A stretch of 64,000 bases of DNA from Flectonema sp. DT1601. Lineage: Eukaryota. The notes below the pieces were generated by a model, which had not been told where the DNA came from, ran no database searches, and saw only the letters and a list, made by a program, of their open reading frames with translations. The stretch spans positions 558,001-622,000 of the forward strand of contig OZ025801.1 of NCBI GenBank assembly GCA_964019425.1, written 5' to 3'. Positions 5,501-59,038 of this stretch are shown in pieces (the first letter of the stretch is position 1; each line of letters opens with the position of its first letter). The translations under genes were made by a program, and so were the position numbers.

Positions 5501-5958
5501 GAAGGTAATTGAAATGCTTTTTGACCAGGTCTTGGTGAAGTCTTACTTGGATTAGAAGTAAACAGAGTTGGGTGAACACTCAATGGGTTACTTGAATTCC
5601 TTCTCGGAGGAGACAATGACAATGGTTGAGGTGCAGAAGTTGAGAATGTTCGTTGCTCAAGCGGATGCGAAGACCGACGTTGCAAACCATCAAATAAAAG
5701 AGGTGGAGCTAGTCGTGGCATACAAACAGGTGCTGTAGCCAACCTACAAACAGGTGACAACACTTCTGGTGAACTGTCACTCGACGACGGAACCTCTAAC
5801 GGTGTTGGGGTCACATACTGAAGTAGTGATTCCAAAGTTGCTAATGGAGGAGAAGATATTCCATCTAGTCTTCCCTTTTTTGATTTAAAATTTATTTTCT
5901 CAGGTATAAATAATAATGGTTCACTCAGAGCTAGAATTGGTTTATTGTTCTCCGGCAT
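2558..5958 (-). CDS. Phosphoinositide-specific phospholipase C (EF-hand, X, Y, C2); two exons 5958-2932 and 2665-2558
   Basis: X-box SSHNTYL, GCRCLEIDIWDG and HGHT; Y-box RIYPRATRVDSSNFDP; C2 domain with NGFNPTWNE. The ORF-track tail runs into a repeat. A GAG|GTGTGT donor at 2931 and a CCAG| acceptor at 2666 give a clean 35-aa last exon (PLPLASPQ...YSFAT*). Confidence 0.93.
2780..2912 (+). mobile_element. F1 copy inside the PLC intron
   Basis: aaaccattcagatt...aatctgaatagttt cttct ccgactacgtcgg tac A-run. Confidence 0.9.
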
Positions 5959-6389
5959 ATCATTCTCTGGGGGGGTTTTCTGTATGGTTTTTTTTTAAAG
6001 GGAAAAAAATAATAATTCATACGAACAGTAAAAACATGTCAATTAGTAGGTTTCCCCCGTTCATAGAGAGATAAAGAAATAAGACAACCGCCGAAGAAAA
6101 AAAAGAAGAAAAAAAAAAAGAGACTGTCACAAGATTGTGGTGTTTATTTTTATTTTTCTTTCTTTTGCTTTTTTTTTTTTTTTTTCCGCATTACAAGTAG
6201 TATAGATAGTGTGCACAATTATTTTCTCGTTTTGACAATCAAATTCGCTAATATAAAAAATAAATTAAAAAATAATCAAAAAAAAAAAAGAATATAAAGA
6301 AATAAATATATAACGATAAACCATGGTTTTAGCACCCAATTTAAAAAATATAGGCTCAATACATCCTTTCTTTTTTTTTTTTTTTTTTT

Positions 6390-6940
6390 GTACCGACATA
6401 AGTCGGAGAAGAAACTACTCAGATTGAAAGCCGTTATTTCTTGTGGTCATGACATATTTCCCCGTGCGACAGGATTCTGTCCGCGTTCAGCAAAAGAAAA
6501 CTGTGTCTGGCATAAACCCCAACACTGTACTTCATTTGTCGGCTGCAGCAGGACGTGGGCCGCGAGTGCGAGGCCTCGAGGCGGCACAACGTCGGCTGAT
6601 TCAGTTTCGGAACAGTTGCACGTGGCGATGAGTGTTCTGTTGTCGTGGGATCTGGACATTATTTATTGAGTCGAGAGGCAGAGGTCTCGGACCGAGGGTT
6701 CAATCTCAACTCCACTGCGCTCGAGTACGTGAAATGGTCGCAAGCAGCACTGAGAAGCACATGATCGTAAAAGGCCAGATGCTGACTGAATACGTGAGAG
6801 GGCTAAAAAGAACCGGCGCGCTCCCACCGTTGCCAGGCGGTTCCAGTGGTGGAAGCGCGCCAGGTGGTACGCGCTTCAGACTGCGATGACCTTCCAATGT
6901 GCCTGTGTTCAACGAATTATATAGCTATTCCGTATGGTTT
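6390..6940 (-). mobile_element. Long F1 copy with ~420-bp GC-rich internal segment
   Basis: Hairpin end at 6390-6490 and degenerate opposite end (gttcaacgaattatatagctattccgtatggttt) at 6907-6940. Confidence 0.75.
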
Positions 6941-8154
6941 TTTATTTTCGTTTTTGCAACCAGAAAACTAAATCCCTGTTATTTGTGCCTAAGGAACTCA
7001 TACTACTGATATAAAACTTCGTACGCAACAGTGACAGGATAGGGGAAAGTAGAAATGCGACAACCAAAGTGATCATTTTTGGTGAATCCACAATCACTTT
7101 GGTGGGGGCATTGTTCCACTTTTCCAGCCCAGTCAACATTACACCGATATATCCGATTGGTCATTTTAATCCAACGTTGCTTGAAAATTATTACTTCACA
7201 ATTAGTTTGATACAAAAAAAAGAACGAAAAAAAAAAAAAAAAAAAGGAATCAACTATCACCTTCTGAGCAAAATATTTTTTTTTATGAGCGACAACCATG
7301 GCAATAATAACTGTGAGTAAATTGTAAAGATCGTACTTTCATTTCGCAGCTATTAGAAAAGGTACTCGGCCTAGTGGAGTGTACAATGAGACAGAAAAAA
7401 ACACCTGCCGTCATTAGAAATTATGTTCTTAATGTAAGAAACAAGACCACCAATTATCGAGAGAAAAATACGTCGTGGTTGATTGCGAAAAAAGAAAATT
7501 AAAATAAAATAATCCATCCACGCTTCGAGTTATCGCTTAGATACGTCTAAAGTGTTTTTTTTTTTTTTTTTTTTTTGTTTGTTTCTTAAAAAAAAAAAAA
7601 ACAAAAAAAAAACACGCGCGATTATTAACAGAACAATTGAACTAAACTTAGATTGCCTTTACTCACTTAAGTTATTTCACAGAAAAAAGAGAAAAAAAAA
7701 AAAAGGAAAGTGAAGAAGGCACCCTTCCCAATCGTCATTGGAAGCAATGGGGAGGGACGGACGTACGTATTCTATCATATAAAAAAAATATGAAAAAACA
7801 ATCGCATAGAAACAATTAAAAACAAATTATTTATTATTATTTATTTATTTATTTACGAAGCCTAGGAAGCCAAAAGCCAGGAAAAGCTCACAGAGTAACA
7901 GTTATATCGCTACCAGCAACCGTGAGACTCTCACAGACGATAAGAGACGTAGAATAACCTGGAACAAATGACTACCTAAACCCACCGTCCACGCGAGCAG
8001 ACAGTGTTAGAGACGGCTGATAACGCCAATTTTCGCCAAAGAGAGGGAGAACACGCCACATTAGATCAGAAAATAAGAAATAAAGTAATGATAAGTAATA
8101 GAAATGATACTAATAAATAAAATAAGAAATTACACTAGAGGAAAGAGACGTTCA

Positions 8155-11100
8155 TTATCTACCTCGGGGATTACTTCGCAGGAGGCGACTTAGGCGAGAG
8201 AGGAACTTAGAAAGCTTGGATTCCGACCAGCTAGGATTGACCAGCACATTAACCATAGAAAGGTCATCAATAACAACATTTAAATCGGTAGCTTTATAAG
8301 CGTTATCAATAAGTTCCATAACATATTTCTTCACATCAGAACCCAGTAGCGAGAAACTTGTCTTCCTTTCGATGTGTGTGATTAGTTTCTTCCTCACAAA
8401 AATACCCTGAAGCGGAAACTTCAACAACAACGGATTGTCAGATAACTCTTTAAGATGATTATCAAGCTTGCTGATCAATAACAACGTGAAAGGCTGCCAT
8501 TCGGTTCGAAAGAACATATCCAGAGATAGCTCATCATCAGGTGTCGGAAATCTCATGGTTTGCTTTACCAATTCCCTGGTCTCAACGCATTCAAGCAGCA
8601 GATGCTCAGTTGAGGTATCCTGAAAGCCACAGAACAGACAACATTTAAAGCCCGCGGTGACCCTCGGTAGCTTTACAAGCCTATGGTGAGAGGTTCGCAG
8701 ACGAGACAATTCTACCTCCTGCCCCCTAGTGAGACAGGGAAGGAAACGCTGAGGGCCAGATCCTAGAGTCGCTTTGCTGTATGAATGCGAAGAGTCCACA
8801 GTACCCATAGCCTTCCAATTTGCTTGTTTCTTAATACAACATTGAGCCATCCTGAAATCATACGGAGTTAGTTCAGGGTCAACTGATTGCAAGGCTGCCT
8901 TCTTTGCCAGTGTATCAGCCAGTTCATTCCCTGCAATGCCACAATGAGATGGGACATGCTGGAAAATCAACGGCCTATCAAGAAGCACTGAGCGTTCAAA
9001 AATCTCACAATTTGTTGATGATGACTGCCTGGATGGCCCCCTATGCAGGGAGGCAAGCGCCGACTGACAATCACTGAAAATATGAATCACGCCATGCGAA
9101 ACAACATGAAGATTCTCCTCTAGTAGTTCAAGGGCTGACAATAGTGCTAGTTGTTCTGCATTGTAAATCGTGAGGGACGGTTGGAACTTGGAGAGCTTCT
9201 CAATGACCTTGCCAGCAACTAGCAGAACAGCAGCCCCCCCACATAATAATCCCCGCTCCTCGTCATGGAAGACCGAGGCATCAGTGTAGACTTCAGCAAC
9301 ACACGGGGGCAGTTCATTGAGGGTCGTCATCGCCACAGCATACTTCTCCTCAGGTGTGTCAGTCTTGTCATAACCGCAGGACGTGTTTACAACCAAAGGA
9401 GGATGCTTCGACCACGGAGGGTACTGATGTGGCAGAACTTTCTGGGACCTAAGCTCTGACAGAGAAAATTCCGAGGAACAGGCTTCAACTCTAGTCTGCC
9501 ATGGTCTCTTCTTCTCACCACCGTTAAACAGCCTCCATGAAGGACATTCAGGTTGTCGCCTTAGCAAATCTTCATGAACTAGGGCAAGGAGCCTAGATAT
9601 CGTTTGTTGCAGCGGTGGAATTCGCGACTCAACTGTGAGCACCACATCCTTCGTCGAGAACGAGCAACCAGTGAGTCTTATCCGTAGATGACGCAAGCAC
9701 GCTTCGATCCGCTTGATCTGAGCATCAGACAAAAAGGGAGAAAAGGCCTTCAGTCCAAAGAACGCTCGAGATAACACTGCACCATCTACAAGCTGACGAA
9801 GGGTATCAGTTTTGACCTCATAGGCAGAGAACATTTTGAGTAAACCGCAACCAGCTCGAATTGTTTTCACAATCTTATCCACCTGTTCGTCGAAGCATAG
9901 CGAGTCATCAATGATAACTCCTAGGTATTTCGCGCTCCTGACACGTTTCAGCGGGATCGCTGCTTTCAGCCTGAACTCTTTGCTCTTACGAGCACAGGCC
10001 AGTCGGACAAAGTCAGAACGTCTCGTCACCGGGTAACCATCAATCTCCAGTGGCAGCAAAGCATCAGCGAGATCAAGAACTGCCCCTATTGATGGAGAAA
10101 GCTTCTCAGTGAGAGCACCGGCAGAGCCTGTAGGCATGTGTAACTCTTCAACAGACGATGGGAAGTAAAAGCGAGGTGCCCTACTCCATTCGACATCGGA
10201 GCCAGAGATGCGCTTACCAAAGGCAACGTACTCTGTTTTCTTCATGTTTACCTCCATCTTAGAGGAAACCATCCAACCTTCTATCTGAGAGATGACGGAC
10301 AGGCCCTTCGCTTCGATCCCATCTATCTTCTCATGTTGCAGAAACACGGCAAGATCATCAGCAAACAGAACACTGAGATCAGCATCACTTATTAGACCTG
10401 GCAGGGAGTCGACAAAGATCCGAAATAAGAGAGGACCAAGCACAGATCCTTGAGGGACCCCCTTCGTACACGATCTGGATCCATTATCTAATCCCAGAGA
10501 CAGACTCACATTTCTATCCGAAAGATAATTCGCAAGCCATTTAACATACGGAACCGGCAGGACAGCTACCAATCTATCAACGAGTATTTGATGATCCACG
10601 TTATCGAATGCCCCAGAGATATCAAAGAGGATGATCGCTCCATAACCATCATAGAGTTTCTGCACACCGGAAGCCGCATCCACCAATAGCGAGATGTTCT
10701 CTTCTACATTTCTGCCCGGCGTAAAACCAGACTGCCTAGGGTCCAACTTCCCCTCCAACAAATGTTCACATCGATTACCTACAAGCGACTCCAAGCACTT
10801 CGAAACAATTGACGTCAAAGAGATTGGTCTGTAAGAAGACGGAAGAAGCGGGTCACGATCCCCTCCCTTCGGAATTATTATCACCTTGGCCTTTTTCATG
10901 CAAGAGGGAAAGATACCCCTCCTGAAAGATAGCGAGGCGAGTCTAAGCAATAGTAGGAGCATACGGGGACCCAAGTTAAGCAGCATATTATTAGAAACAG
11001 AATCTAAACCAGACCCGTGGGAGGGAGTCAATGACTTCAGTACCGTGTATAACTCATGAATCGAAAAAGAACCACAGCTTGAGTCATCATAATCAGCAGG

Positions 11101-12318
11101 CTTCGAATCAGGAACTAATAACGGTGAGGATTTTGAATCACCAAAGAAATGGTCGAGTAAATCATCAGCAGCTACCGGAACTTCCTTCGAATTAGACCGA
11201 CCGCCCCTGAGTTCCCGCAGTTTGTCGAAGGCCCAGGCCGCTCCTTTTGAAGAACCAATTTTCGCAATAAGATCAGGTCTCAGCTTAGGTAATTTCTTCC
11301 TCCGCTTCGTATCAGATTTGAACCATTTGTTTGGAAGCGTTTCAATAGCCACCTCCTCAATTAGACTAATAAATTCACATCCAAGCTTGTTCACATTAGA
11401 CATCCCCTCCAAACGATGAGCTCGCGCTTCAGTTAGCACGCGAAATGAGACCCAGTGCTCATCCTCGAACTTGTTGTAGAACCAGCGGCGGTGAGCGGGA
11501 GTGGTAATTTGTGAGCAGCCCGGATATACCGAGATGTCAACCACTATTGGCGTGTGGTCGGACCCACTATCAGACGCACTGTACTGGTGTACATTCAACA
11601 CCTCAATATTGCTGTCGACAAGAAACAAATCAGGTGAAGTCTCTGAACAAGGTCTTGTATCCAGCGGAACATCGCAAATCTGCAGTCCATTTCCGTTAAT
11701 CCAATCAAGAACTGACAGACCTCGCGACGAACTACTTGTTGGAACCACCCTCGACCACGACCGATGGTGAGCATTGAAATCTCCACATACTACTTCACCG
11801 AAGACAACAGAGGTCGGCACCAAGAAATTCTGCGGAATATACACATTAGAAGACGTAATCGGACCGATGTCTGTCATTACCTCGACAACTAACACCTCAA
11901 ACGGTGAATTACGCTCAGTTGGATCCGATAATCTCCTGACCACAAGGGAGTCCCTGCAGAAAGTCGCCAGTCCACCACCGCGTTTTGCCTTGCCATCAAA
12001 ATTTAATCTGATTCTGTCCCTACGGAAGCAGGTGTATCCCTGAAGTTGAATCTGTTCATCAAGAACCAGATCAGTGAGCCAAGTTTCTTGAATATGGAGG
12101 ATGTCAGGATTAGCCGATTGAACGAGCCGTACCAGAGATTCATGGTGCTTTACCATCGACAGCGCATTCCAACTAAGTATTCTCAGCGGCGATATATCAG
12201 ACATCGGACCAGGGTGTCTCGGAAAACCACTACGATAGAGTTCCAGAAGCCCACTCACAGAATAATAGTACTCCAAGGACGGAGTCTTTCCCAATAAAGA
12301 GTCAATTGGAAGTGGTTG
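8155..12318 (-). CDS. LINE ORF2: AP endonuclease, reverse transcriptase, RNase H, CCHC finger
   Basis: APE: ILSWNA, IQETW, GDFNAH, SDH. RT: YRPISLTS, DISGAFD, GVPQGSVLGP, FADD, KYLGV. RNase H: YTDAS, SDCQSAL, HVPSHCGIAGNELAD. CxxC...HxxxxC finger. Frame is open up to the ORF1 stop; first ATG is at 12204. Confidence 0.95.
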   Translation of the reverse strand, partial: QPLPIDSLLGKTPSLEYYYSVSGLLELYRSGFPRHPGPMSDISPLRILSWNALSMVKHHESLVRLVQSANPDILHIQETWLTDLVLDEQIQLQGYTCFRRDRIRLNFDGKAKRGGGLATFCRDSLVVRRLSDPTERNSPFEVLVVEVMTDIGPITSSNVYIPQNFLVPTSVVFGEVVCGDFNAHHRSWSRVVPTSSSSRGLSVLDWINGNGLQICDVPLDTRPCSETSPDLFLVDSNIEVLNVHQYSASDSGSDHTPIVVDISVYPGCSQITTPAHRRWFYNKFEDEHWVSFRVLTEARAHRLEGMSNVNKLGCEFISLIEEVAIETLPNKWFKSDTKRRKKLPKLRPDLIAKIGSSKGAAWAFDKLRELRGGRSNSKEVPVAADDLLDHFFGDSKSSPLLVPDSKPADYDDSSCGSFSIHELYTVLKSLTPSHGSGLDSVSNNMLLNLGPRMLLLLLRLASLSFRRGIFPSCMKKAKVIIIPKGGDRDPLLPSSYRPISLTSIVSKCLESLVGNRCEHLLEGKLDPRQSGFTPGRNVEENISLLVDAASGVQKLYDGYGAIILFDISGAFDNVDHQILVDRLVAVLPVPYVKWLANYLSDRNVSLSLGLDNGSRSCTKGVPQGSVLGPLLFRIFVDSLPGLISDADLSVLFADDLAVFLQHEKIDGIEAKGLSVISQIEGWMVSSKMEVNMKKTEYVAFGKRISGSDVEWSRAPRFYFPSSVEELHMPTGSAGALTEKLSPSIGAVLDLADALLPLEIDGYPVTRRSDFVRLACARKSKEFRLKAAIPLKRVRSAKYLGVIIDDSLCFDEQVDKIVKTIRAGCGLLKMFSAYEVKTDTLRQLVDGAVLSRAFFGLKAFSPFLSDAQIKRIEACLRHLRIRLTGCSFSTKDVVLTVESRIPPLQQTISRLLALVHEDLLRRQPECPSWRLFNGGEKKRPWQTRVEACSSEFSLSELRSQKVLPHQYPPWSKHPPLVVNTSCGYDKTDTPEEKYAVAMTTLNELPPCVAEVYTDASVFHDEERGLLCGGAAVLLVAGKVIEKLSKFQPSLTIYNAEQLALLSALELLEENLHVVSHGVIHIFSDCQSALASLHRGPSRQSSSTNCEIFERSVLLDRPLIFQHVPSHCGIAGNELADTLAKKAALQSVDPELTPYDFRMAQCCIKKQANWKAMGTVDSSHSYSKATLGSGPQRFLPCLTRGQEVELSRLRTSHHRLVKLPRVTAGFKCCLFCGFQDTSTEHLLLECVETRELVKQTMRFPTPDDELSLDMFFRTEWQPFTLLLISKLDNHLKELSDNPLLLKFPLQGIFVRKKLITHIERKTSFSLLGSDVKKYVMELIDNAYKATDLNVVIDDLSMVNVLVNPSWSESKLSKFLSRLSRLLRSNPRGR

Positions 12319-14040
12319 TTAATTCCTCGAGTAGTCCCGTTTCTCATTCCGGTCAAGACGGTCAGCCATTTCAGACTTAGTAGCAGCAACAGAGTTAGCT
12401 CGTTGCCTACTTGAGACCGTCAGCCTCTGAGAACCCGATCCTTTATCGTTATTCAGGGTCTCAATCTCCTTTCGAAGACATCTATTCGCATCCCTCTCTT
12501 CAGCAAGGTCCTGCCGTAGACTCTTCACAGCAGCCGTTAGTTCAGTAACCTGCGATACCAATTTAGAAATGTCGGATTGTTGACAGTTGTACTGCGAAGG
12601 CGGTAGGGGCAGCTGCTGTTTGTTCGATTGTAGCGTCTGCAGATATTGCTGATTTTGCTGATTTTGCTGAGAAACAGGCGGTGGTGATAAATCAATTCCA
12701 ACAGATGGCGCAGCGTTAGGTTGACAGAGGTGAGGAAACTCGTCCAGGTCCATCTTATCGGGATTCTGCTTGCCGAGACCCACCTCTTTGATTGTGATCA
12801 TGTCATCACGAAGAATGATGAAGTTACTCTTGGGTTTCTCCTTGGCCACTACAATCATCTTAGGAAGCTCCTTTCTGCTCCTGTATCGAGCAACGACGTT
12901 AATCTCCCACCCTTGGTGAGCACAGACCTGCACTACTTCCAGCGAACTCATCGCATCAATTGCTCGGCTCCTCAAACAGAACTTGAGGCCTTCAGGTGGA
13001 GGCGGCAGTGCATTCTCACCCAGCTTCGATCGCACGTAATCTTCGTCGGTCTTCAGACACACAATCCCCAGCTTGCGTGAGTGGCGGTAGAACCTCAGAG
13101 GTAACCGGAGTTCACCGGCTAGCGATGAGGCTAACTTAAAATCCACCGTGAGCTGGATTGACGACCTGCACGGTGCTGTGTCTGCGAAATTCGGTACTGA
13201 TAAGAAGTACCCACCACTCCCACTTGCCCTTCTCAAGGCGTCAACAGCGTCTGCTGGCACCCTCATGTTCACAGACTTAACATGAGGGTCTGATTCCTTC
13301 TTGTTGGCAGGCCACAAGAGGTGCGGCTCGATGGGCATGTTCGTGACTGCTGTGTAGTAGTCAGAAGCCTTCTTGCACAACTCATTAGGTGAAGGTACCT
13401 TGTCGTTGGAGTGGAGCGCGTGGTGGTGGAACAATACCACTCGATTGTCACCGGCAGTCAGAGCGTCTCCACGGAAGAGGGTAGCTGGTTTCCCGGTTGA
13501 TACAATCCAACCGGTCCGATGTGTCAGGACACCGTCGTTTACCACCGCCGGGAACTGTATCTTCTTACCGCCCCCAGGGTTTTTCTTGCAAATTACCGAG
13601 AGGTTTGTTCCCGGTCGGAGTTTAATCATCGCATCTACATCAGAGGCCGTGCCCAGTGACACACCACACGTAATCGACGTGTTAAACACGCCTGACATCG
13701 AAATTATTGGAACAGACCAGTCATCATCACGGAGTTGGCAGTCCCACCGCTTCTCTTGCACATTCGGTAAATTAGTTGCTGCCTTCCCATCACATCGGAC
13801 CTCCTTCAGTCCACTAAACGAATTCAGCGCTTGAGCCGGCTCAGGCTTGCGCTTCACTACCTTGGGCCGCTTACCACGTACCCTCGTCCATTCCTCATTC
13901 ATCGGCGATAAATCCACCGATGGCTTCTCTCCCCCGTTGCGTTTAGTAACCCCCTTTACATTCAAACCCTTCTGCATCTCACCGAGCATGCCCACCATCT
14001 TCTCCAGCATCAGGCCAAATAGGCCTGGATCCAATGTCAT
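12319..14040 (-). CDS. LINE ORF1 (573 aa; Gln-rich stretch and C-terminal coiled coil)
   Basis: Long ORF directly upstream of and in frame with ORF2; ATG 20 nt after the SL relic; no obvious CCHC knuckle. Confidence 0.85.
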   Translation of the reverse strand: MTLDPGLFGLMLEKMVGMLGEMQKGLNVKGVTKRNGGEKPSVDLSPMNEEWTRVRGKRPKVVKRKPEPAQALNSFSGLKEVRCDGKAATNLPNVQEKRWDCQLRDDDWSVPIISMSGVFNTSITCGVSLGTASDVDAMIKLRPGTNLSVICKKNPGGGKKIQFPAVVNDGVLTHRTGWIVSTGKPATLFRGDALTAGDNRVVLFHHHALHSNDKVPSPNELCKKASDYYTAVTNMPIEPHLLWPANKKESDPHVKSVNMRVPADAVDALRRASGSGGYFLSVPNFADTAPCRSSIQLTVDFKLASSLAGELRLPLRFYRHSRKLGIVCLKTDEDYVRSKLGENALPPPPEGLKFCLRSRAIDAMSSLEVVQVCAHQGWEINVVARYRSRKELPKMIVVAKEKPKSNFIILRDDMITIKEVGLGKQNPDKMDLDEFPHLCQPNAAPSVGIDLSPPPVSQQNQQNQQYLQTLQSNKQQLPLPPSQYNCQQSDISKLVSQVTELTAAVKSLRQDLAEERDANRCLRKEIETLNNDKGSGSQRLTVSSRQRANSVAATKSEMADRLDRNEKRDYSRN

Positions 14041-14060
14041 AGTTGTTAATTATTGGAAAT

Positions 14061-14076
14061 CAATAAAGTACAGATA
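14061..14076 (-). other. Second, partial SL relic
   Basis: TATCTGTACTTTATTG = last 16 nt of the SL with one mismatch, 20 nt upstream of the ORF1 ATG. Confidence 0.85.
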
Positions 14077-14110
14077 TTAGCCTAATATTTCGTTGAACAC
14101 AAACGGAATC

Positions 14111-14148
14111 CAATAAAGTACAGAAACTGTAGCTTTAGAATCGTTGGT
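14111..14148 (-). other. Retro-copied spliced-leader exon (diplonemid type)
   Basis: Reverse complement ACCAACGATTCTAAAGCTACAGTTTCTGTACTTTATTG matches the euglenozoan SL 3' core CAGTTTCTGTACT(T/A)TATTG and, from memory, the diplonemid 5' part. Not followed by a GT donor, so not an SL RNA gene. Confidence 0.92.
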
Positions 14149-14599
14149 GGAAATAAAAAAGAATCGACAACTTTATTTTTTTTTACTTTTTTACTCACAT
14201 TTTTTTTTGTTTTGTGACGCAACCAGGTGCAAAATCCTAATAAAGGAATAGGTTAGGTTGCGCTGCCACAATTCTCTTTCTACCTAACAACGGGTTGTAG
14301 GTTTATAAAAATAAATAAAAAACGAAAGAAAATATAGAACACTGATTAAGACTCACAACCTCGTCGACTTTTTTTTTTTTTTTTTTTTAAAATGAAAAAT
14401 CTGTCGACCTCAGTCTGTTCCAATTAGTTTGAATTTCGAATGACAATCACGACGGGAGAAAGTCTCGGCAATGTTGATGCGTGTCATATTTTTTTTTTTG
14501 TTGTTGTTGTTTTGATCGTGCGCAACCAAAAAAACAATTTTGTAAAGTTTAAGGTAAACGTTTCTCTTTCAATCGTAAAACACGTTTTCGAGATGGAGA

Positions 14600-14672
14600 A
14601 GGGGGTGAAACTTTGACAATGTAAAAACAGTAACAACTTTAGGTATTAAAAAAACAAAATTAATATCAAAGC
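14600..14672 (+). repeat. Dispersed repeat family F4 (also 15113-15155 and 46202-46278; linked segment 15012-15058 resembles 46531-46580)
   Basis: Shared gggggtgaaactttgac...aaacagtaacaact...aaattaatatcaaa. Confidence 0.75.
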
Positions 14673-15260
14673 ACTTACCGAGATGGAGAAAGGGGAAAAA
14701 AAAAAAGAAAATCCACAAAAAAAATAGTTTCTGATACTCAGAACTACCTAATGTGTGACAGCAATCTGAGATATTCTCCAACAACACAATAATATGAAGA
14801 ATTCGAGAGTTCAATTATGTTCCTGACGTCATAAAAAACTAAAGAAGAAATAAAAAAACAACAAAAACAATGCAACTGCCCCCCAGTGGATGATGTCTCT
14901 CTCTCTCACTTAGCAATAGTACCAAAAAAAAAAAAAAAAAAAAGGGATAAATTGAATGTTTGAACATTTGCAAAAAAAAAAACACAACTGTTTTGTATCA
15001 TATTAACATAAAAACGATAATTTTAACATTCTGTTAAGGATACAGTGAACATAGCCTTTTTTTTTTTTTAAAGTAACTATTCAGGTTTTGAGAGTTTTCT
15101 ATATCCAAAAGGGGGGGGGTGATAGCTTTGACGACGTAGAAAACAGTAATAAACTTCATTATACTAAAATAAGGTAATAAGGGTTAAAAAAAGATGAGGA
15201 AAAAAAATGAAAAAAATTAGTTTATTATATAAGAGAGTGCACTAAATGAAAATAATATAA

Positions 15261-15431
15261 AAAGAATTGGCTTTATCTGCATCTATACAGAAAATAATAA
15301 TATAACAACTGTGATTTTTTTTGTTTGTGTCACGAAACCCCCCGTGAACCGACTTAAACTGATAAAGCTAAAGGAGGTTTACGTGTGCTGCCCAACATTC
15401 TTTTTCGTTCTTACAATACTTGTTAAATGCA
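15261..15431 (-). repeat. F2 copy
   Basis: Reverse complement of 1948-2113. Confidence 0.9.
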
Positions 15432-15892
15432 AAAAAAAAAGAAAGAAAGACAAAGTTTAGCTAAAAATAAAATTAGATATAATGTATTATACTCGTACAT
15501 AACTAAAATAATGTTAGTATAAGTATCCAGAAATCGTTGTCGAATCTGGTAATTCGGGGGGGGACTTGGATAAATAAATCAAGGTTAACACGCAACAAAT
15601 TAGACAAGAATCATTATAACTGGATTCTGTCCACACAAAATCGCATGCTTTAAATAAACTACCAGAGAAAGAAATGCTGTCAAGTCAAATTGACCCGGGG
15701 ACCACGCACTACAGGTTGAGCATCCCATGCCCTGCAGGTCGTTACAGCTTGAAAACATTAATGCATTAATGGGTAACCAATAAAAATTATCTGGGTGGGT
15801 AGTTACAGGGGTGAGAAAAAAAGAAAAGATAAATAACATGACAAGAATACGCTGGTTCGTAGCACACTACCAGCAAAGCCCATCCCATAAAC

Positions 15893-18800
15893 TTAGTTAT
15901 GGTTGGTTTGACTCAAAAGCAGGAAAGGTTCACAAGTCAACTGATGGATTTGCAAACCTCGACTTCCCGCAAACCATGTGCCTGCTTTCGTCGTACGCAT
16001 GCCACATCCACAACAAAAGTATATTCCAACGCAATTCAAGCAAACATTCCAATCACATGTTAAACTCTCACCTTTACAAGGGAGACGACATTCAAGTATT
16101 TGTCCAAAGAAATAATTTGAATCACATAAATCACAAAAAACTGGTTTATTAATGAGAACTATTTCAAGATCGTGACCTTGTGGGCAAGTGGTGGTTACAC
16201 CTTTTTGTTCTAACTCGGTATGTACTTTCATTGGAGAGAGCACCTTGCAGGATTTAGAATCTGTTTCATTGACGATACTTTTCGATAAGAATCTACTCGT
16301 TATGTCCTTTTCGTTTAAAACAAATAAAGGTAATATGATTTCTAAACCTCCTTCACGCAATTTATCAAAGAGTACCCCGGCTTCGTCAGGTAAGTTTTCA
16401 CTCTCCACATCAGTAAAGCCAGAACAGGTAACCAAATTAAACAGGCCATTGAGAATGACCTCAGTATACTCTATACACCAATCATTGATTACTGACCAAT
16501 CGTATGGCCCTAGTATTGGGAAAAAGTGCTCAGATGGAACATTTGCATGGTGCCCGAGTATGATGAACCCCCTGACAAGTAAAAAAGTAGACCGCGCGTC
16601 GGGAGCGACAAAGTAAGCGGAGTCTTTTTGCTCATAAGGGTCCATACTTAGGAAGAAAAAACTAACACCCAATACATTTGATAAGGCTTGTATGGCTGCA
16701 TGGTCTGCCCACACACCATCAAAACCCATTCCAAGTGCATATTCGTCGTAATTACCGAGTACAAAGTTTTTATATTTATCACTATACTCTACTAACTCAG
16801 CACTGGTGAATTCACGCAGCGTCGCTGCATCAAAGAAGTAAAAGATTTGTTTCGATACTGCTTCAAAGAAACAATTACCAAAACGGTTCACGTCTTCAGG
16901 GTAAAGACCAACTTCTTCCATATACCATATCGTGTGGTCAATTGTAAAGTAATCCACTTTTCCTTCTTGAACAATTGGTTCTTCTGGAATCAACACTACG
17001 GCTTTAGGCGGGTAAACAATAAACTGTCTTTCTTTTGGAAAATGGTAAGAGTGAGGGTTGTTTAATTTGCCAAAGACAACATGAACTAAAGAAAATAATC
17101 TCTTATATGTGGAATCGTAGGCTTTATAAAACTCATCGCAGAATTCACGAAAAGCAAATGCTACGTCTTGTTTCTTAAAACCTCTTTTCCACATTCTATA
17201 AAGTATAAATTCAAATTCAACAAAAAGATCAGGTAAATTATTACAAATCATTGCAGCTCTAAACATAGCACCTTTAACCACTCCTTTCGGTATAGACACT
17301 GGCATAGTTGAATTACTATGTACATATTGCAAAGGGCGAAAAGACCAATCCTTTCGGCTTATAGATAACCTGATAAACTTTCTCTTTTCCTTTGTTTCAA
17401 TTCTGATTCTTGCTCCCAAAAAGACTACGTGGTCTTCACTAATCGTAGTGTCTTTGTAGTCCATCTTGTAGATGCTTGGGGGTGGAGGCTCATGCCCCCA
17501 GCAAAGGAAGTCATCAATATAACGCACCATAGTGCTATAAATCTTTGCTTTTGGAGGGGTTAACGTATCAATGTATTTACTCTCACACTGATAGCAATAA
17601 AGGTTTGCTATTAAAGGGGAAGCATTACCACCCATTGGTATTCCTTTTGTTTGTCTATAACATTTTTTACTTCCGATCGGTTGAATTAATGAATAATCAA
17701 TACACATGTTGATATGTTCAATAACTTGTTCAACGGTAAGGTTTTTCGTCTTGGGTGGTTTCGTTTCGGTAAAAAAATATTCACTTTTTCCTTGCGAATG
17801 ACGCGTTAGGTACTTCAGTTTTTTGTAAGTAAAAGCTTCTTTCACAGCTGCCGCACATTGTTCTTTAAGATAGTCATGTGGTAAGTTGCTGTACATTGTA
17901 GTAAAATCAAAAGTTTTTGGTGGGGTGGAAGCGCTATAAATTGGGTATTTCCTTTTAATAGTTGTAATAACGTCGTCGACAGAATCAACAATGAAATATC
18001 TACGTACACCTGTACGAGCAAACTCTATACAATCTTTTATGTAAAGCACTTTGAGAATCGTTTTTAGAAAACCGACTACTTCCAACTGTACATCCGTCAT
18101 TATATTAGACAAACCTCTAGCCGATAGAGCTGCTATTGTCTCTACTTTTGTATCTTTCAAACGGTTGTCTTTTTCCAAAAACTCATTTAATTCATTACTT
18201 TTTTCTTTTTTCTTTTTATCTTTTTCTGAGGTATAAACTTCACATTTGGTGGACGTGCCAGCAATCCAACGTAGTCGGATGTCCGGTAATTTGTGCAATT
18301 TCAAATTACCATAAAGGTAGGGCACAGACCCTGAAAGTTTACTAAAATTTAATTTCTTTTTTGTCGCTTCCAAGTTTTTAAACATGTCCTCTTCTGCTAA
18401 AGAATAGGACGAAATTTCTTTTCTGAGTAATTGTAAATAAAGGGTTTTACACATTACGCCAACATCATGGCGGGCTTTATCAATTGGTAAAAACACAAAA
18501 TTTTCTTTTAAGTTAGCTAATTCCTGCCGTAAGCGATAAACAGTATTGTCTGCGGGCAGGGGTTGTAATAACAATAAATGAGATAACTTATTTTTAAGCC
18601 AGGAGTTGAGGTACCGTTCGTTTTGGTTCTGTTCCTCCACCGACTCTCCCTTAAGGCTTCGTCTTACTTTGTCCGTAAAAGTATCGATAGACAAATATAA
18701 TTCTTCTAAAATTTCCGTTTGCGGAGCATGCAAGCGAAACCATAAACCCAATTCGAATAGTTTACGTAGATCACCACTACAATTGAGGTTTGTCCAGTGA

Positions 18801-19153
18801 CCCACTAAATGTTCCTGAGATGATTTTTGTCCCTGTGTGGATCTCATCTCGTTACATTTGCAAATATCATCGGATATGTGTTCCTCATCAAGTTCGGTGA
18901 CAGAACTCATATTTAGAACAACAGATCCAACAGTTCTGCCTAAGGAAAAAGACACTTTAACAGGATCAAGAGAATTGAAAAAGTTTTTGAATAGTGCGTG
19001 TTTAAATACTGAACCAAAATTTAAATTCTTAAGAGAAGGGTGAACCATTCTAAGACAGAACCGGGGCCACGTAGAACGGGGAAAAATAAAAAATGGAGGG
19101 GAAATCGTAGGGCATCTGTCCTTCTCGCAACAGCTATTTTTACCCATGTACAA
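15893..19153 (-). CDS. Penelope-like element reverse transcriptase fused to OTU-family protease and zinc fingers
   Basis: PLE RT motifs PIDKA..VMCK..Y, YGNLKLHK.P..RWIAG, FDFTTMYSNLPH, QTKGIPMGGNASPLIANLY, RYIDD. OTU-like GNCFFEAVS...GVWADHAAIQALS...EHFFPI. C-terminal Cys clusters. Start uncertain (TTG; possible frameshift to 19296). Confidence 0.88.
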   Translation of the reverse strand: MYMGKNSCCEKDRCPTISPPFFIFPRSTWPRFCLRMVHPSLKNLNFGSVFKHALFKNFFNSLDPVKVSFSLGRTVGSVVLNMSSVTELDEEHISDDICKCNEMRSTQGQKSSQEHLVGHWTNLNCSGDLRKLFELGLWFRLHAPQTEILEELYLSIDTFTDKVRRSLKGESVEEQNQNERYLNSWLKNKLSHLLLLQPLPADNTVYRLRQELANLKENFVFLPIDKARHDVGVMCKTLYLQLLRKEISSYSLAEEDMFKNLEATKKKLNFSKLSGSVPYLYGNLKLHKLPDIRLRWIAGTSTKCEVYTSEKDKKKKEKSNELNEFLEKDNRLKDTKVETIAALSARGLSNIMTDVQLEVVGFLKTILKVLYIKDCIEFARTGVRRYFIVDSVDDVITTIKRKYPIYSASTPPKTFDFTTMYSNLPHDYLKEQCAAAVKEAFTYKKLKYLTRHSQGKSEYFFTETKPPKTKNLTVEQVIEHINMCIDYSLIQPIGSKKCYRQTKGIPMGGNASPLIANLYCYQCESKYIDTLTPPKAKIYSTMVRYIDDFLCWGHEPPPPSIYKMDYKDTTISEDHVVFLGARIRIETKEKRKFIRLSISRKDWSFRPLQYVHSNSTMPVSIPKGVVKGAMFRAAMICNNLPDLFVEFEFILYRMWKRGFKKQDVAFAFREFCDEFYKAYDSTYKRLFSLVHVVFGKLNNPHSYHFPKERQFIVYPPKAVVLIPEEPIVQEGKVDYFTIDHTIWYMEEVGLYPEDVNRFGNCFFEAVSKQIFYFFDAATLREFTSAELVEYSDKYKNFVLGNYDEYALGMGFDGVWADHAAIQALSNVLGVSFFFLSMDPYEQKDSAYFVAPDARSTFLLVRGFIILGHHANVPSEHFFPILGPYDWSVINDWCIEYTEVILNGLFNLVTCSGFTDVESENLPDEAGVLFDKLREGGLEIILPLFVLNEKDITSRFLSKSIVNETDSKSCKVLSPMKVHTELEQKGVTTTCPQGHDLEIVLINKPVFCDLCDSNYFFGQILECRLPCKGESLTCDWNVCLNCVGIYFCCGCGMRTTKAGTWFAGSRGLQIHQLTCEPFLLLSQTNHN

Positions 19154-19681
19154 AAAACGACGGTATTCCCAAGCATGTTATAATGATATTTTACGCGTTC
19201 GTCTTTCAACAAAATGTTGGGAACGAGACAAAAACACAACATGCCTCTGAGACCATCTAAGGAAAACTCAGAGAAAGAATTGGGACGGCTCTTCACAAAT
19301 CCTCGATACTACGTAAGCAAATTAGCGGAATATAGAACTTTAAAAAAAAAGAAAAGAAAAAAAAAAGGATCAGGTCACCCCAACTAAAAACATGATAATA
19401 TCAAACGTATTATCAGTTTTTTTTTTTTTTTTTTTTTAAAAACACCGATAAGGAGAACTGACTCCCGTTCAGCTGATAGTGAGACGTGTTGACAGTCGTC
19501 GTGTCAGTTACGTGGAGTGACGCTCCTTATGAAAATAAAACAAAAAAAAATTTTAAAAAAAAAAAGAAAAAATAAAAAAATCACTATTGTCAAATGTTTC
19601 TCAGAACCGTAGTCGTAGTTTAAAAATTTTTTTTGTTTGCGTCCAACAACAACGTGTTTAAAAAAAAACAATAACAATTTC

Positions 19682-19715
<34 letters not shown>

Positions 19716-20232
19716 CAAATCAAGAAAAAGACACCCGTTGAACACAACAACACAAGTTGTCTGAAGTGAAACTGCGAATGCCTATTAGTAAAAGCAAAGA
19801 AAAGTCAAAAAAAAAAAAAAAAATGATATTGTCCTGCCTTTTATAAAGTGTTAAGCCAGCTGCAAGAATCTCAAATCCATGCAGCCAGTTACACGAATAA
19901 AAACTCAACAGAAGAAGAAAAAAAATTGTATGCGTGATGCGTGTGTGAGTGGACAACTAAAACGGAGAAAGAAGAAGAAAAGAAATAACGAAAATAACAA
20001 AACTGATTTTACGAAATTGACGCAAGTAAGGATATCATCATCGGAGACACAACAAACTCTCTGCTGTTCAATAAGGAAGCAGACAACGTCTATAAACTAG
20101 TAAGTCACTTACAAATCATGTAAGAGCCAATATGTTCTCTATGCCTTCTTCAAAAGATTTCAGTGGCGTAGTATGCCCAACAGTTATGCGGCAACTCTCT
20201 CTCTCTCTCTCATTTTTTTTTTTTTTTTTTTT

Positions 20233-20310
20233 TGCATTTTAACAAAAGCATTATTAAGAGCACACATAAACCTCCTTTTAGCTTACTCGGTCTAAGCCGG
20301 TTCACGGTTT
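20233..20310 (+). repeat. F2 partial copy adjacent to a stop codon
   Basis: gcacacataaacctccttttagc...cggttcacggttt. Confidence 0.8.
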
Positions 20311-26073: not shown

Positions 26074-26181
26074 TTTTTTGTGTCACGAAACCGTGAACCG
26101 ACCTTAAACTGATAATAAAGCTAAAGGAGGTTTACGTGTGCTGCCAAACATTCTTTTTTCTTACAATACTTGCTAAATGCA
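26074..26181 (-). repeat. F2 partial copy
   Basis: tgtcacgaaaccgtgaaccg...aaaggaggtttacgtgtgctgcc. Confidence 0.85.
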
Positions 26182-26551
26182 AAAAAAAAAAAAAAAAAAA
26201 CTAATTAAAAAAAATGAGAAATCTCCAACCATTTCTCAAAACATATGTAAGTTCGAATCCCTGTCAATGATATTTCTTTTCACAAATATAATATGCTCCA
26301 CTCGAAAAAAATAAAAAAAATAAAATCGGGGAACATATAAATCAAATGCAACTAAGACTGTCGTATAAACAAAGAGATGCATTCCACACCAGAAGGGAAT
26401 GCATAACTTACTACTACTGATAGTCATTAAAGTACCCGACTAAGACAGAAAGTCATCCAATCAAAATAATTCATTCCACGCTAGTGGGGAATAGATTACC
26501 CTGATTGCCTTTCGTCACAATATCATGAATGGACTTCAATCAAAGGAATAA

Positions 26552-32920: not shown

Positions 32921-33067
32921 AAACCGTTCAAGTCAAGCCTTATTTTTTTTTATGTTGATCGCAGACAGTGATACTGAAAGACCAGGGAAAATAGATTACT
33001 TTTTGACCATAAATAAATAAACGGCTTTTAATCTGAATTAGTTTTCTTTTACCGACTTTGTCGGTGT
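32921..33067 (+). mobile_element. F1 copy (subfamily B)
   Basis: aagcctta...tttgaccataaataaataaacggc...aatctgaattagttt...accgactttgtcggt. Confidence 0.8.
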
Positions 33068-33295
33068 AAAAAAGAAAAAATAATAATTATAATATATAAA
33101 AACAACATTTCATGAAGTCGTTTAACACGCCAGCATTAATTAGGTAATTTCTTATTATTATTATTATTATTTTTTTTTTTATTTTTTTTTTTTTTTTTTG
33201 CTTCTTCAAGTTATTCAACAAGTTTTCACAACAAAAAGTAACTTTATTTATTATTTATTTATTTTTATTTTTTTCAAAAAAAAAAAAAAAAAAAA

Positions 33296-40195: not shown

Positions 40196-40287
40196 ACTTT
40201 TTTTATATTTCGTTGAAACGCAGACGGAATCCTGTCGCAACGGGATCAGCTTTCAATCTGAATAGTTTCTTCTGACTACATCTGTAC
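40196..40287 (+). mobile_element. Degenerate F1 copy
   Basis: ttatatttcgttgaaacgcagacggaatcctgtcgc...aatctgaatagtttcttctgactacatctgtac. Confidence 0.8.
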
Positions 40288-40676
40288 AAAAAAAAGGCGC
40301 ACTATTGGCGCTTCAGGGGATTGTTTGGCAAGTAGCCTGTCACAGATCAGCGGCCTGCCAGCTGAAGTTATTCCTGACACGGGGTCGATCAGCGCAGGAA
40401 ATGTCAGTTAATAAACCCTATCCCCCAAAAAAAAAAAATAGAAAGGGAAATAGAAATACCTTCACAGCATTAATTACCGATGGGTCACCAGTCACTTTCA
40501 GGATCATTTTTTTTTTTTTTGCTTAACCCTTTATACCTGTCGAGTAGGGAAGGCAGTTTACCATATCAACATAGAAAGAAAATAACAATTAAAAAAAAAA
40601 CAGTAATACAATCGGTTAGGCAATTATTATAATGAAAAAGGAAAAATGAAAATGAAAAAAAAAAAAAATGTGTAAA

Positions 40677-45862: not shown

Positions 45863-46694
45863 CTCTTTTCTCGTTAAAGCAGTAATAGATTGCCACCAAA
45901 CAGAGTAAGCAATAACACGTTTACCACTACTGTGCCCTGGGAAAAAAAAAAAAAAAAAAAAAAAGAAACCCCTCTCTGCCCATTATATTATCTCTTATTG
46001 TTCTCCGTATGACCATCAATAGAAGACACCCTCGTAATTTTTGGGGATTAGTTGACACTTTTCAAAAAAGTCTTTCGTTGCAGAGAAGGGACGTGCACAC
46101 CCCACACTAGTGGACAGCTCTTTTTTTTTTTTTTTTTTTTTCCACTTGAAATTTAAAAACTTAAAAATTTAAAAAAACTAATAAAAGAGAGGAAAAAAAA
46201 AAGGGGGTGAAACTTTGACTATGTAAAAAAAAACAGTAACAACTATTAGGTGTTAATACGAAATTAATATCAAATACTTGTTTGTAGTTGTTAATCAAAG
46301 AAAAGGAGAAAAGGGAAGGAGAAGGACTCGAAGTTATTTCTCGAAGGATTCCCTTTTTTGGATCGCAAGAGTAAAAATCCCTAAAAAAAAAAAGGCAGGA
46401 GGTAGAAAACAGCTTCGATGGTAACAAACGACTTGAGGGGAAGAATTGAATTGCGGGTTTTTTTTTTTTTTTTAAAAAATTTCAGCTTTATTTTAAGCAA
46501 CAAAAAAAAATTGAAAAAAAAAAAAAAAAAAAACGATAATTTGACAATCTGTTAACGATACAGCGAAAAGACTTTAGCTTTTTTTTTTTTTTATAATAAG
46601 AAACTGAAGCACCGGGTATGTATGCTTATGTGTTCAGTCATTCGTGTTACCGCACATCCTCTGGGTCTTTGCAAATATCTGAATTTTAGAAAAA

Positions 46695-46833
46695 AACTTT
46701 CAGATAAGCCTTATACTTTGTTGATCGGCGACAGTATTTCTACCGCACAGGGGAAATAGATAACATTTTGACCATAAATAAATAAACGGCTATTTTAATC
46801 TGAATAGTTTTCTTCTACCGACTTCGTCGGTGC
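46695..46833 (+). mobile_element. F1 copy (subfamily B)
   Basis: ttcagataagcc...aatctgaatagttt...accgacttcgtcggt. Confidence 0.85.
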
Positions 46834-46969
46834 ATTGAAACACCTTTTTTTTTTTTTTTTTTAAATTATCCTATGTAATTCCCATGTTAAGTCTAACTTG
46901 AAGTGAACCAATGGAAGTTTATTAAACTGACATTCCACCATTTCTGGTTGAACGCTTCGTAGAGATGGA

Positions 46970-47073: not shown

Positions 47074-47767
47074 TTTGTTAACTAAAAAAAAGAAATAAAA
47101 AAAAAGAAGAAAAAAAGAAAAAAAAAAGGCAGCCTGCTGTAGATAACAAAAAGATATAAAAAAAAAAAAATAATTATAAAAAAAAAAAAAAAAAAAAAAA
47201 GAACGTTCATCACAAAGAGCAACGAAAATAACAGTTTTTTAACCAAACAAAAAAAATTGGGGGTTTTGTGGAAAAAAAAAAAAAAAAAAAATGATTTAGA
47301 AAAAAAATTCCTTTTTCAGGAAAAGGGTTTTAAAGTAGCTAGGTTTTAATAGCTATCAGTCAATCATATAAAAAATCAAATGCAAATAAACACTAGTGGG
47401 GGTCAATTAGTTTTGTAATCCAACGTTGCTGTATATTTTGAGTGCTCTAAGAGGTAACTCACAGCAACAGAGGACCCAATCCGTAACCGTTTCCGAAGGC
47501 TGGAGCATGGATTGTTGAGTTAGTTTGAAATAAAGGAAAATTAGCTTTTTTTTTTTTCTTTTTAATTTTTTAGTTTTAAGTACACTCTTGAGGTTGGCGT
47601 CTTGCATTTTTTTTTTTTTTTTTCCCGCAACCAATCTCATTTAATCACTAGTTTGTCTCAAAGAGTAAAAAACCTTTCAGATCAGTTTTTTTGAAATAAC
47701 CAACTGCACTCATACATTCACTTAGCTAAGCATCACATTGCGAGTTGAATCAGTGAGTAGAATATCA

Positions 47768-47883
47768 AAACTATTCAGATTAGCCTTATATTTCATTGAA
47801 CGCAGACAAAATCCTGTCGCACGGGGAAAATAAGAAATATCGGCTTTCAATCTGAATAGTTTCTTCTCCGACTACGTCGGCAC
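47768..47883 (+). mobile_element. F1 copy with perfect 14-bp inverted repeats
   Basis: aaactattcagatt / aatctgaatagttt, then ccgactacgtcgg. Confidence 0.92.
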
Positions 47884-47949
47884 AAAAAAAAAAAAAAAAA
47901 AAAAAAAAAAACTTAAAAATTAAAAAATCGTTCAAATACTTTATTATTT

Positions 47950-48038
47950 ATTAATCGCTGACAGTAGAAAAACATTTGACCATAAATAAATAAACAGATT
48001 TTAATCTGAATAGTTTCTTCTACCGACTTTGTCGATGC
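47950..48038 (+). mobile_element. Truncated F1 copy (subfamily B)
   Basis: tttgaccataaataaataaac...aatctgaatagttt...ccgactttgtcg. Confidence 0.8.
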
Positions 48039-48673
48039 AAAAAAAAAACTAAATAGTAACAATAATAATTTATTCTCGCGCCTGTTGCCTTTTTTTTTTT
48101 TTTTTTTTTTCTTGTCACACACAACCATAACATAAAAAAGATACACAACCAACAAATTAAACGAGGCGTTCTACGAACTTTCTAAGGGGATTGCGCCTTC
48201 AGTATGCGTCTGCGATGATCCTAAATCTCCCACGCTGACGCATTAAACCAAGGCAGTGTCACCCTTCTTAAGGAGACTGTGTACGCCTTCAGTAAGAGCG
48301 AGCCAATAGCAAGATATGCACACTACACTGACGCATTAAACGAGTCTGATTGGTATCCGCCAACCTATCTTGAAGAAGATGGGAAACCTTTTTAACTGAC
48401 GTCAATGCTTAGTAGGCGCGAGTCATGATCATTTGTACACATCGGCCCCCGAGCTGGGGGTCGTCGTGATTTAGATCGATAAATTGATTATTCTTGTTCT
48501 GATTAGCTTTTGAATACCAAAATAAATATACTCAGAGAGTCTTTCATATTTTAGAATAGCCAGCCAACAATGAAAAAAAAAAGAAGAAAAAAAAAAAAAA
48601 AAGACCATAGATATGACTACACTTACATAACGAATATCGTCAGTATTAAGTACTCAGGGGAGGGGAGAGAGAG

Positions 48674-58394: not shown

Positions 58395-58520
58395 CAATTA
58401 CATTATAAAAAACTGTTACCACTTCCCCTTTTTTTACAAAACAAAAATTTAAAAAAGAACAATATTATTCTTTTCTTTTTTTTTTTCTTTTTTTCAAAAA
58501 AAAAAAAAAAAAAAAAAAAA

Positions 58521-58613
58521 AAACCATTCAGATTAGCCTTATATTCCGCTGTCACAACGAGAGACCACAAAATATCAGCTTTCAATCTGAATAGTTTTCC
58601 GACTACGTCGGTA
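58521..58613 (+). mobile_element. Internally shortened F1 copy
   Basis: aaaccattcagatt...aatctgaatagtttt ccgactacgtcgg tac. Confidence 0.88.
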
Positions 58614-59038
58614 CCAACAAAGTTTTTTTTTTTTTAAAAAAAGAGGAGGAACATTCCAAATACCATTGATAAGATATCAGTAAAACTGTCTTTCTTCATT
58701 GAGATGGTGAGTAGCACCACACAATATAACACGAGAAATTAACAAAAAATCTGTTCTTTTTTTTTTTTTCTTTTGCCTGATAATTAGCACTTTATCAAAT
58801 ACATAACATGCAGTAAAGCTCGCATGTAAGACTAAAAAAATCAGATTTTATGCTTTCCCAATGTTGCAAGATGGAGTAGCACCACGCAATGCAACACCAG
58901 AAATTAACAAATTTATTCTCCAGTTGCCTTATGAGACAACAAAACACTTCTCAGCAACGTTCGCACGTGGGACTAAAAAAAGAAAATCAGATCTTCGATT
59001 TTGAGAAGGTTAGCAAATACAAAAAGAGAGGAAAAAAT

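Follow-up and report, generated by a model that had tools for sequence, protein, structure and literature searches.

SLACS, CZAR, and CRE elements carry a restriction-like endonuclease instead of an APE endonuclease. LINEs of the I group (the I factor and its kin) have two ORFs, the domain order APE-RT-RNase H-CCHC, and a tail of TAA repeats. Chimeric retrogenes of the U6/L1 type are flanked as a whole by one target-site duplication (TSD), the captured RNA being joined by its 3′ end. In dinoflagellates and Perkinsus, recycled (retroposed) mRNAs have left relics of the spliced leader (SL) in the genome, a pattern interpreted as the outcome of repeated trans-splicing and retroposition (PMC6050394, PMC12014239, PMC3942190). 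The trypanosomatid LINEs L1Tc/ingi start with the 77-nt Pr77, a promoter and HDV-like ribozyme, and their RNA is unspliced (PMC1874656, PMC4035085, PMC5814959), a mode of transcription called general for trypanosomatid LINEs by the authors (PMC1874656; PMC4035085). In Diplonema papillatum, where genes form one-way clusters and essentially all mRNAs carry the SL, both LINE and SLACS ORFs have been listed (PMC10161547). The term "spliced leader" is absent from seven supplementary files of that work, and neither these files nor the portion of the text searched describe SL-headed elements. The searched text of two further papers (PMC11613528, PMC4558846) contains nothing bearing on SL-headed LINEs. 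No description of such a LINE in Euglenozoa was found in the literature searched, a scope that leaves out most subscription papers and the repeat databases.

We analyzed a 64-kb stretch of DNA (hereafter, the window), which is AT-rich, eukaryotic, and encodes ordinary eukaryotic proteins. The minus strand carries 18 of the 19 ORFs of at least 150 aa, which fits a one-way gene cluster with a LINE inserted in the direction of the cluster (Table 1). The LINE has an APE endonuclease and an RT in one ORF (N-terminal Exo_endo_phos domain, E = 3.5e-13), intact catalytic motifs, and a simple-repeat 3′ tail, as expected of an APE-type LINE, and neither ORF1 nor ORF2 has frameshifts. A single-sequence structure prediction of ORF1 gave a mean pLDDT of 31, too low for use.

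Table 1. Positions of the LINE, of the pieces of its 5′ head, and of the copies of the host repeat in the window
Feature	Positions	Strand	Remarks
5′ flank pyrimidine tract	14149..14163	-	abuts outer SL; ends in ATTTCC (14154-14149)
Outer SL	14111..14148	-	SL nt 2-39, exact, 38 nt; followed by GA, not GT
Host-repeat fragment	14075..14110	-	36 nt; starts directly after the pyrimidine tract and AG of the repeat
Inner SL remnant	14061..14074	-	SL nt 26-39, exact (14 nt); followed by AT, not GT
Leader from inner SL to ORF1 ATG	14041..14060	-	20 nt; ATTTCC (14060-14055), then AATAATT (14054-14048)
ORF1	12319..14040	-	573 aa; ATG at 14040; no Pfam family; C-terminal coiled-coil-like stretch
Link between ORF1 and ORF2	12205..12321	-	single in-frame TAA, CAA CCA, 38 open codons to a degenerate 2A-like motif; frame shared with ORF2
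ORF2	8155..12204	-	1349 aa; APE endonuclease, RT, RNase H, CX2CX8HX4C knuckle; catalytic motifs present
3′ untranslated region	7856..8154	-	
3′ tail	7826..7855	-	TAAA and TAA units
Closest intact host-repeat copy	47767..47884	-	
Host-repeat copies, same orientation	997-1131, 2779-2913, 32921-33068, 40201-40288, 46692-46834, 47939-48039, 58520-58614	-	
Host-repeat copy, opposite orientation	6389-6500		

The two ORFs are in one frame and separated by a single stop codon, and the CAA CCA behind it matches the CARYYA read-through context. Were this stop read through, one capped RNA could, from the sequence, give both products. The 2A-like motif, compared with the consensus of PMC5814959, is degenerate in the window and clearer in the sister family P0004, and an NPGP or HPGP motif occurs in 17 of 120 hits. 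A 10-bp direct repeat almost exactly flanks ORF1 (14051-14042 and 12324-12315 on the minus strand; 9 of 20000 shuffles). We rejected a candidate SL relic ahead of ORF2: it is an 8-nt match reached in 80 of 20000 shuffles, it lies in an open frame, and the same 8-mer occurs 7 times on the minus strand.

Eight sequences make up the ORF1 cluster; the six that were compared range from 547/570 to 573/573 identical residues, and one ORF1 sequence with 572/573 identity is present on 4 contigs. The ORF2 cluster has 25 members, on contigs of up to 1.37 Mb. Judging from these clusters, which lie on long contigs of differing length, the LINE family is young, dispersed, and multicopy. Two sister families, P0003 and P0004 (clusters of 15 and 10), with 43-44% identity, were found on comparable long contigs. 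In a quick RT tree with 120 rows (119 hits used), the LINE and these two families fall into one long-branch group with support of 100. The LINE did not group with T. cruzi L1Tc in this tree: P0067, which is of the L1Tc type, is one of 18 rows forming a starred set to which the LINE does not belong, a result of the quick tree only and with the LINE on a long branch. With the I group it has in common the two ORFs, the domain order, and the TAA tail; the tree has no named I-group reference. It differs from the I group in having no evident 5′ UTR with an internal promoter, no CCHC knuckles in ORF1, and both ORFs in one frame with a single stop. Searches of ORF1 against metagenome contigs gave 79 pattern hits, none of them confirmed, and ORF2 matched 9 distant RT loci in viral contigs (23-31% identity). 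No SL-headed LINE was found among the 57 SL-bearing loci of public viral and metagenome contigs, where tblastn returned nothing. The window also has a second, unrelated RT ORF of 1084 aa (15893-19147, minus strand), with a weak RVT_1 match, an OTU-like protease domain, and a Cys-rich end, which by its motifs is presumably Penelope-like; no endonuclease family matched it and no SL lies ahead of it.

The 5′ end of the LINE consists, on the minus strand, of an SL, a piece of a host repeat, the 3′ end of another SL, and a short leader before the ATG. The initial annotation had described precisely this order, with neither SL followed by GT, and every piece was recovered in place. The first A of the SL is absent, with C in its place, so that 38 of the 39 nt of a Diplonema-type exon are present. 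The piece fits positions 2-39 of the SL consensus published for Diplonema sp. (PMC3795323, supplement file 1, row 47) and is unlike the SLs of trypanosomatids (PMC3795323, Table 1) and prokinetoplastids (PMC7859406). A scan of metagenome contigs for the SL gave 45 loci with 47 matches. The exact 38-mer is present in 43 of these loci, and 32 of the 47 matches are directly followed by GT, as in SL-RNA genes. In addition, a 72-nt contig of sequencing run X1 reads A, the 38-mer, and GT; the run is probably a mixed sample, and its SL gene need not be that of the host. Taken together, the published consensus, the metagenome loci with SL and GT, and the contig of run X1 indicate that the 38-mer is a working SL, in agreement with its initial identification as an SL. 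From its leader sequence, the host is most likely a diplonemid. Neither SL of the head has the GT donor and intron of an SL-RNA gene behind it. Among contigs of prokaryote genomes, the scan gave two SL loci, one an SL gene and the other an SL-like contig start; the diplonemid-type SL-RNA gene of locus L058 lies in a contig filed under a bacterial MAG, a likely contamination.

Given the intergenic composition, the 38-mer has a chance of about 1e-22 per site, and the exact 14-mer of the inner remnant one of 2e-8 per site, or about 1e-6 over a stretch of 60 nt. When up to 2 mismatches are allowed, a 15-nt SL pattern matches the window only twice, both times in the LINE head, a result that is weak on its own as 6 of 100 shuffles also reach 2 matches. 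The inner remnant ends at the exact end of the SL exon, 20 nt ahead of the ATG. If 14076-14075 are counted, it corresponds to SL nt 24-39 with one mismatch (15/16) and the repeat piece shrinks to 34 nt (14110-14077). The remnant had been said to start right after the internal AG of the SL, which is the case when this mismatch is accepted; the exact match covers 14 nt only. As an explanation of the head the internal AG fails, because splicing there would put the fresh SL directly before the remnant, with no repeat piece in between.

The middle piece is 29/36 identical to the repeat copy at 47813 on the minus strand (local score of 40, compared with at most 31 in 60 shuffles), and it matches a profile of the 9 other copies with E = 0.005. 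The outer SL is joined to it at a conserved AG preceded by a pyrimidine run in 7 of the 8 repeat copies that cover this position, the eighth being shifted by one base. A join behind any AG would be expected by chance in about 7% of the cases, given 8 AGs in a repeat copy of 118 nt. Since the SL is joined exactly behind the conserved AG of the repeat, the SL and the repeat piece together have the form of a trans-spliced RNA. The earlier description of the middle piece as repeat sequence is supported. Pyrimidine tract and AG lie on the transcribed strand in the 8 of 9 copies that share one orientation. We rejected the reading in which the middle and inner pieces are a single complete SL that has decayed: equal scores were reached by 1588 of 20000 shuffles and by 3605 of 60272 intergenic windows, and the middle piece is a repeat fragment. 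The reading of the 5′ flank as a third, older SL was also discarded, as 1077 of 30136 windows score equally well.

The repeat itself is 120-150 bp long and non-coding; it folds into a small hairpin plus a long stem (z of -4.8 and -4.3 in two copies) and has T/A runs at both ends; it may be MITE-, Helitron-, or SINE-like. One copy, at 6389-6941, is apparently interrupted by some 400 bp of DNA that is richer in GC and has no evident ORF. The window has other short dispersed repeats, one family at 1935-2115, 15259-15444, 26074-26204, and 20214-20310, and another at 14599-14670 and 46201-46274.

The 108 nt of the head are fully accounted for by the SL, the repeat piece, the SL remnant, and the leader, which leaves no room for a block like Pr77. 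Its folding is no stronger than that of shuffles (z = -0.27), no Rfam family matched over 5900-20300 at gathering level, and an antisense frame of 77 aa across the head matched no protein. The first AG behind the pyrimidine tract of the flank falls within the SL copy itself (14134-14133). Between 14284 and the ATG there are 12 AGs, and the one with the most pyrimidine-rich upstream sequence (21/30) is inside the outer SL. With its best-placed AG in this position, the RNA of this LINE copy is predicted to splice within its own leader. The evidence on the 5′ end comes from this one copy. The contigs of run X1 match parts of both ORFs with at least 99% identity and lack 12942-13985 and the head junctions; none of its 5 records bridges any junction of the head.

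The comparison with recycled mRNAs of dinoflagellates and Perkinsus is close in that a genomic SL without intron precedes an ORF and is itself followed by the remnant of an older SL; an intronless SL at the 5′ end of an ORF-bearing insert, the mark of an SL-recycled retrocopy, is indeed what we find. The passengers there are host genes, whereas here we have an autonomous LINE in a euglenozoan. In those mRNAs, moreover, the relic is cut at the internal AG of the SL and directly follows the new SL, whereas in the LINE 34-36 nt of repeat lie between the two. By analogy, the head of the LINE seems to work as dinoflagellate mRNA recycling applied to the LINE itself. With L1Tc/ingi, the LINE shares the APE, RT, and RNase H domains of a non-LTR element, a host with polycistronic transcription and trans-splicing, and, in degenerate form, a candidate 2A-like motif before the enzymatic part. 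Yet, L1Tc/ingi elements have one ORF, C2H2 fingers, and TSDs of 7-11 bp (PMC1874656, PMC4035085, PMC5814959), whereas in the LINE of the window ORF1 is separate, the knuckle is of the CCHC type, the tail consists of TAA units, and the head lacks a Pr77-like start, as judged from composition, folding, and Rfam. In our assessment, the LINE belongs to neither the L1Tc/ingi nor the SLACS group. Finally, as in U6/L1 chimeras, a piece of unrelated RNA is fused to the 5′ side of a LINE sequence, but here no TSD encloses the chimera, and it is at a trans-splice acceptor that the captured piece begins.

There is no ordinary TSD around the segment from the SL to the tail, nor when a longer 3′ end, a 3′ transduction, or a start further upstream is allowed, and the last 6 nt of the 5′ flank recur nowhere downstream of the tail. 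The ATTTCC ahead of the outer SL is identical to the 6 nt behind the inner SL; with 2 nt of slack allowed, 71 of 29621 intergenic sites drawn at random show such a match. The AATAATT that follows behind the inner SL recurs at 7831-7825, across the boundary between tail and flank. Joined together, the end of the 5′ flank and the 3′ boundary equal the 13 nt behind the inner SL, a match shown by none of the 29621 control sites; for the 7-nt half the control is overly stringent, since AATAAT is part of the tail itself. A candidate 7-bp TSD for the LINE exists only if the LINE starts at 14047.

The simplest account of an intronless SL that extends to nt 2 ahead of an intact LINE is that it marks the end of a cDNA made on SL-capped RNA. 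Similarly, the inner remnant, which stops where the exon does and lies 20 nt ahead of the ATG, suggests that the RNA of the element was capped at that point on an earlier occasion. Hence, the RNA of the LINE was very probably SL-trans-spliced and copied up to its cap, a claim that does not depend on the number of rounds of retroposition. To the more specific proposal that the head records two SL-capped rounds, the first of which left a parent truncated in its SL and landed in a copy of the repeat, we give an even chance. In the first round, an element RNA with the SL joined to the 20-nt leader would have been reverse-transcribed only 14-16 nt into the SL, and this truncated parent would have joined, via TCTG, a host-repeat copy 36 nt behind the pyrimidine tract and AG of the repeat. 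In the second, read-through transcription of a one-way gene cluster would cross the parent, and trans-splicing at the AG of the repeat would give an RNA made of SL, 36 nt of repeat, SL remnant, and LINE. Copying of this chimeric RNA would then extend to SL nt 2, and the product would enter a T-rich tract with the same orientation as the cluster. Host read-through would thereby serve as the promoter, trans-splicing would set the 5′ end of the LINE, and the element would pick up the host sequence between the borrowed acceptor and its own start. The splicing of the RNA, the order of the events, and the lack of an internal promoter are what we infer from the layout of the head.

We favor two rounds because they involve only ordinary steps, namely 5′ truncation, short homology, and a borrowed acceptor, and a truncated parent in a repeat copy is a simpler route than those offered by the initial annotation. 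The exactness of the inner remnant over 14 nt fits a recent truncation. The outer SL is exact over 38 nt and lacks GT, where 32 of the 47 metagenome matches have it. The TCTG, the first four bases of the inner remnant, is found at the position of the join in 5 of 6 covering repeat copies. This part of the proposed microhomology is sound, but 2 additional bases are present at the join in the window, which is therefore not clean and counts against the two rounds. Four of the five copies with TCTG have AAT behind it. This AAT is similar to the TAA tail and to the present 3′ boundary, as expected of a target site primed by the tail, a weak resemblance drawn from two sites. The absence of an ordinary TSD also counts against two rounds, as does the parent locus not having been seen, and the 6- and 7-nt direct repeats have to be treated as chance or as target preference. 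Published precedents speak against an SL-capped template as well: the RNAs of L1Tc/ingi in trypanosomatids do not undergo splicing (PMC1874656), and in nematodes the SL1 site of the LTR element Cer1 is bypassed in its genomic-length RNA (PMC3315495).

The same TCTG could have served within a single round, in which the RT, having reached SL nt 26 on an SL-capped LINE RNA, switched to a second SL-capped RNA made from the repeat and ended at its cap. The RNA of the element would still be capped, and the chimera would be peculiar to this copy and its offspring. We consider this rather unlikely, though it is the foremost rival: the TCTG is rightly placed in most covering copies, the SL lies behind an AG, RNAs of this kind should exist given the acceptors on the transcribed strand, and the RT of L1Tc switches templates in vitro (PMC5814959). 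The jump would, however, have to reach an internal position of an unrelated RNA, and it meets the same 2 extra bases and leaves the direct repeats unexplained. Truncated insertion with short homology, by comparison, is a common LINE 5′ junction. The direct repeats are better served if the LINE starts 7 nt before its ATG with AATAATT as its 7-bp TSD, and if the 88 nt from SL to SL are a separate or co-captured retro-insert with ATTTCC as its own TSD of 6-7 bp. The LINE RNA would then not need to be SL-capped. Removing both pieces restores a clean, continuous T-rich site, the two duplications are perfect and of similar length, the control sites given above rarely or never match, and no other TSD is present. 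We nevertheless regard this as improbable, since it requires an RNA that ends exactly at the end of the SL exon, or priming inside another mRNA, together with a template switch and either two insertions separated by 6 nt or a single event with several jumps. In addition, truncation of the LINE would have had to stop only 7 nt ahead of its ATG, the TAA tail by itself almost supplies the 7-nt half, and no AG lies ahead of ATTTCC here, so the inner junction cannot have arisen from this locus.

Two other explanations have much lower probability. A consensus in which the heads of two copies were merged, with 6 nt duplicated, would be in line with the existence of near-identical LINE copies and with the lack of bridging records in run X1. 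Such an artefact is very improbable: every junction is biologically placed (behind the AG of the repeat or at the end of the SL exon), both ORFs are intact in frame, and a merged consensus would still imply another copy with such a head. Insertion into an SL-RNA gene, in the fashion of SLACS, CZAR, and CRE, is suggested by the mere presence of a retrotransposon beside SL sequence in a euglenozoan and by the SLACS-like RTs annotated in D. papillatum (PMC10161547). We regard it as practically excluded, and the distinction from these elements drawn at the outset is upheld. CZAR and SLACS split the mini-exon between nt 11 and 12 within SL genes (PMC5814959), whereas the LINE of the window has a whole exon at its 5′ side, none at its 3′ side, and no GT intron; the flanks contradict an SL-gene context, only 2 SL matches exist in the 64 kb, and the endonuclease is of the APE type.

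The scan for the SL also revealed copies outside retrotransposons. The giant-virus-like contig IMGVR_UViG_3300046534_001516 (237,777 bp; loci L001-L004 and L008) has the same SL without GT ahead of genes, in 6 copies (4 exact, 2 variant) placed 18-19 nt behind a promoter-like AAAA(T)TGA motif. Genes for an A32 ATPase, a UDG, a SNF2-type helicase, and a Mre11/Rad50-like protein lie near the giant-virus-like SL loci. The same geometry of SL and motif is found in 14 of the 47 metagenome matches (14 loci among L013-L057), and L007 is also giant-virus-like. From their sequences, these contigs point to cis-encoded leaders and to diplonemid hosts. Locus L011, likewise giant-virus-like, has a different euglenozoan SL type, with the motif 44 nt away, and at L036 a viral-type SL copy seems to be interrupted by about 20 extra bases. 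At the start of the contig of locus L026, tandem SLs (a 3′ part, then nt 3-39) precede a gene of the NUBPL/Nbp35 type (299 aa, 56% GC); this may reflect a host gene recycled through its SL in another diplonemid, or a library artefact. RT activity on SL-capped RNA could be a route by which giant viruses of such hosts gained an SL behind their promoters.

At every new site, a LINE has to rebuild its 5′ end and find a promoter. Known euglenozoan LINEs do so with the Pr77 promoter/ribozyme and avoid trans-splicing; copying of SL-capped RNA, if true, would be the opposite solution. Tentatively, and with somewhat more doubt than confidence, the whole family may lack promoter and ribozyme and run on host polycistronic transcription and SL trans-splicing. 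It would insert behind T-rich tracts, its own retroposed SL would supply AG acceptors, host sequence would be captured at its 5′ end whenever an upstream acceptor is borrowed, and ORF1 and ORF2 would be made from one capped RNA through read-through and a 2A-like skip. If SL-capped copying is true, SL recycling, so far described for genes of dinoflagellates and Perkinsus in the literature searched, also takes place in Euglenozoa, and each LINE 5′ end is a readable record of past insertion sites. In contrast to the related elements of trypanosomes, a LINE copied from leader-capped RNA could dispense with its own promoter.
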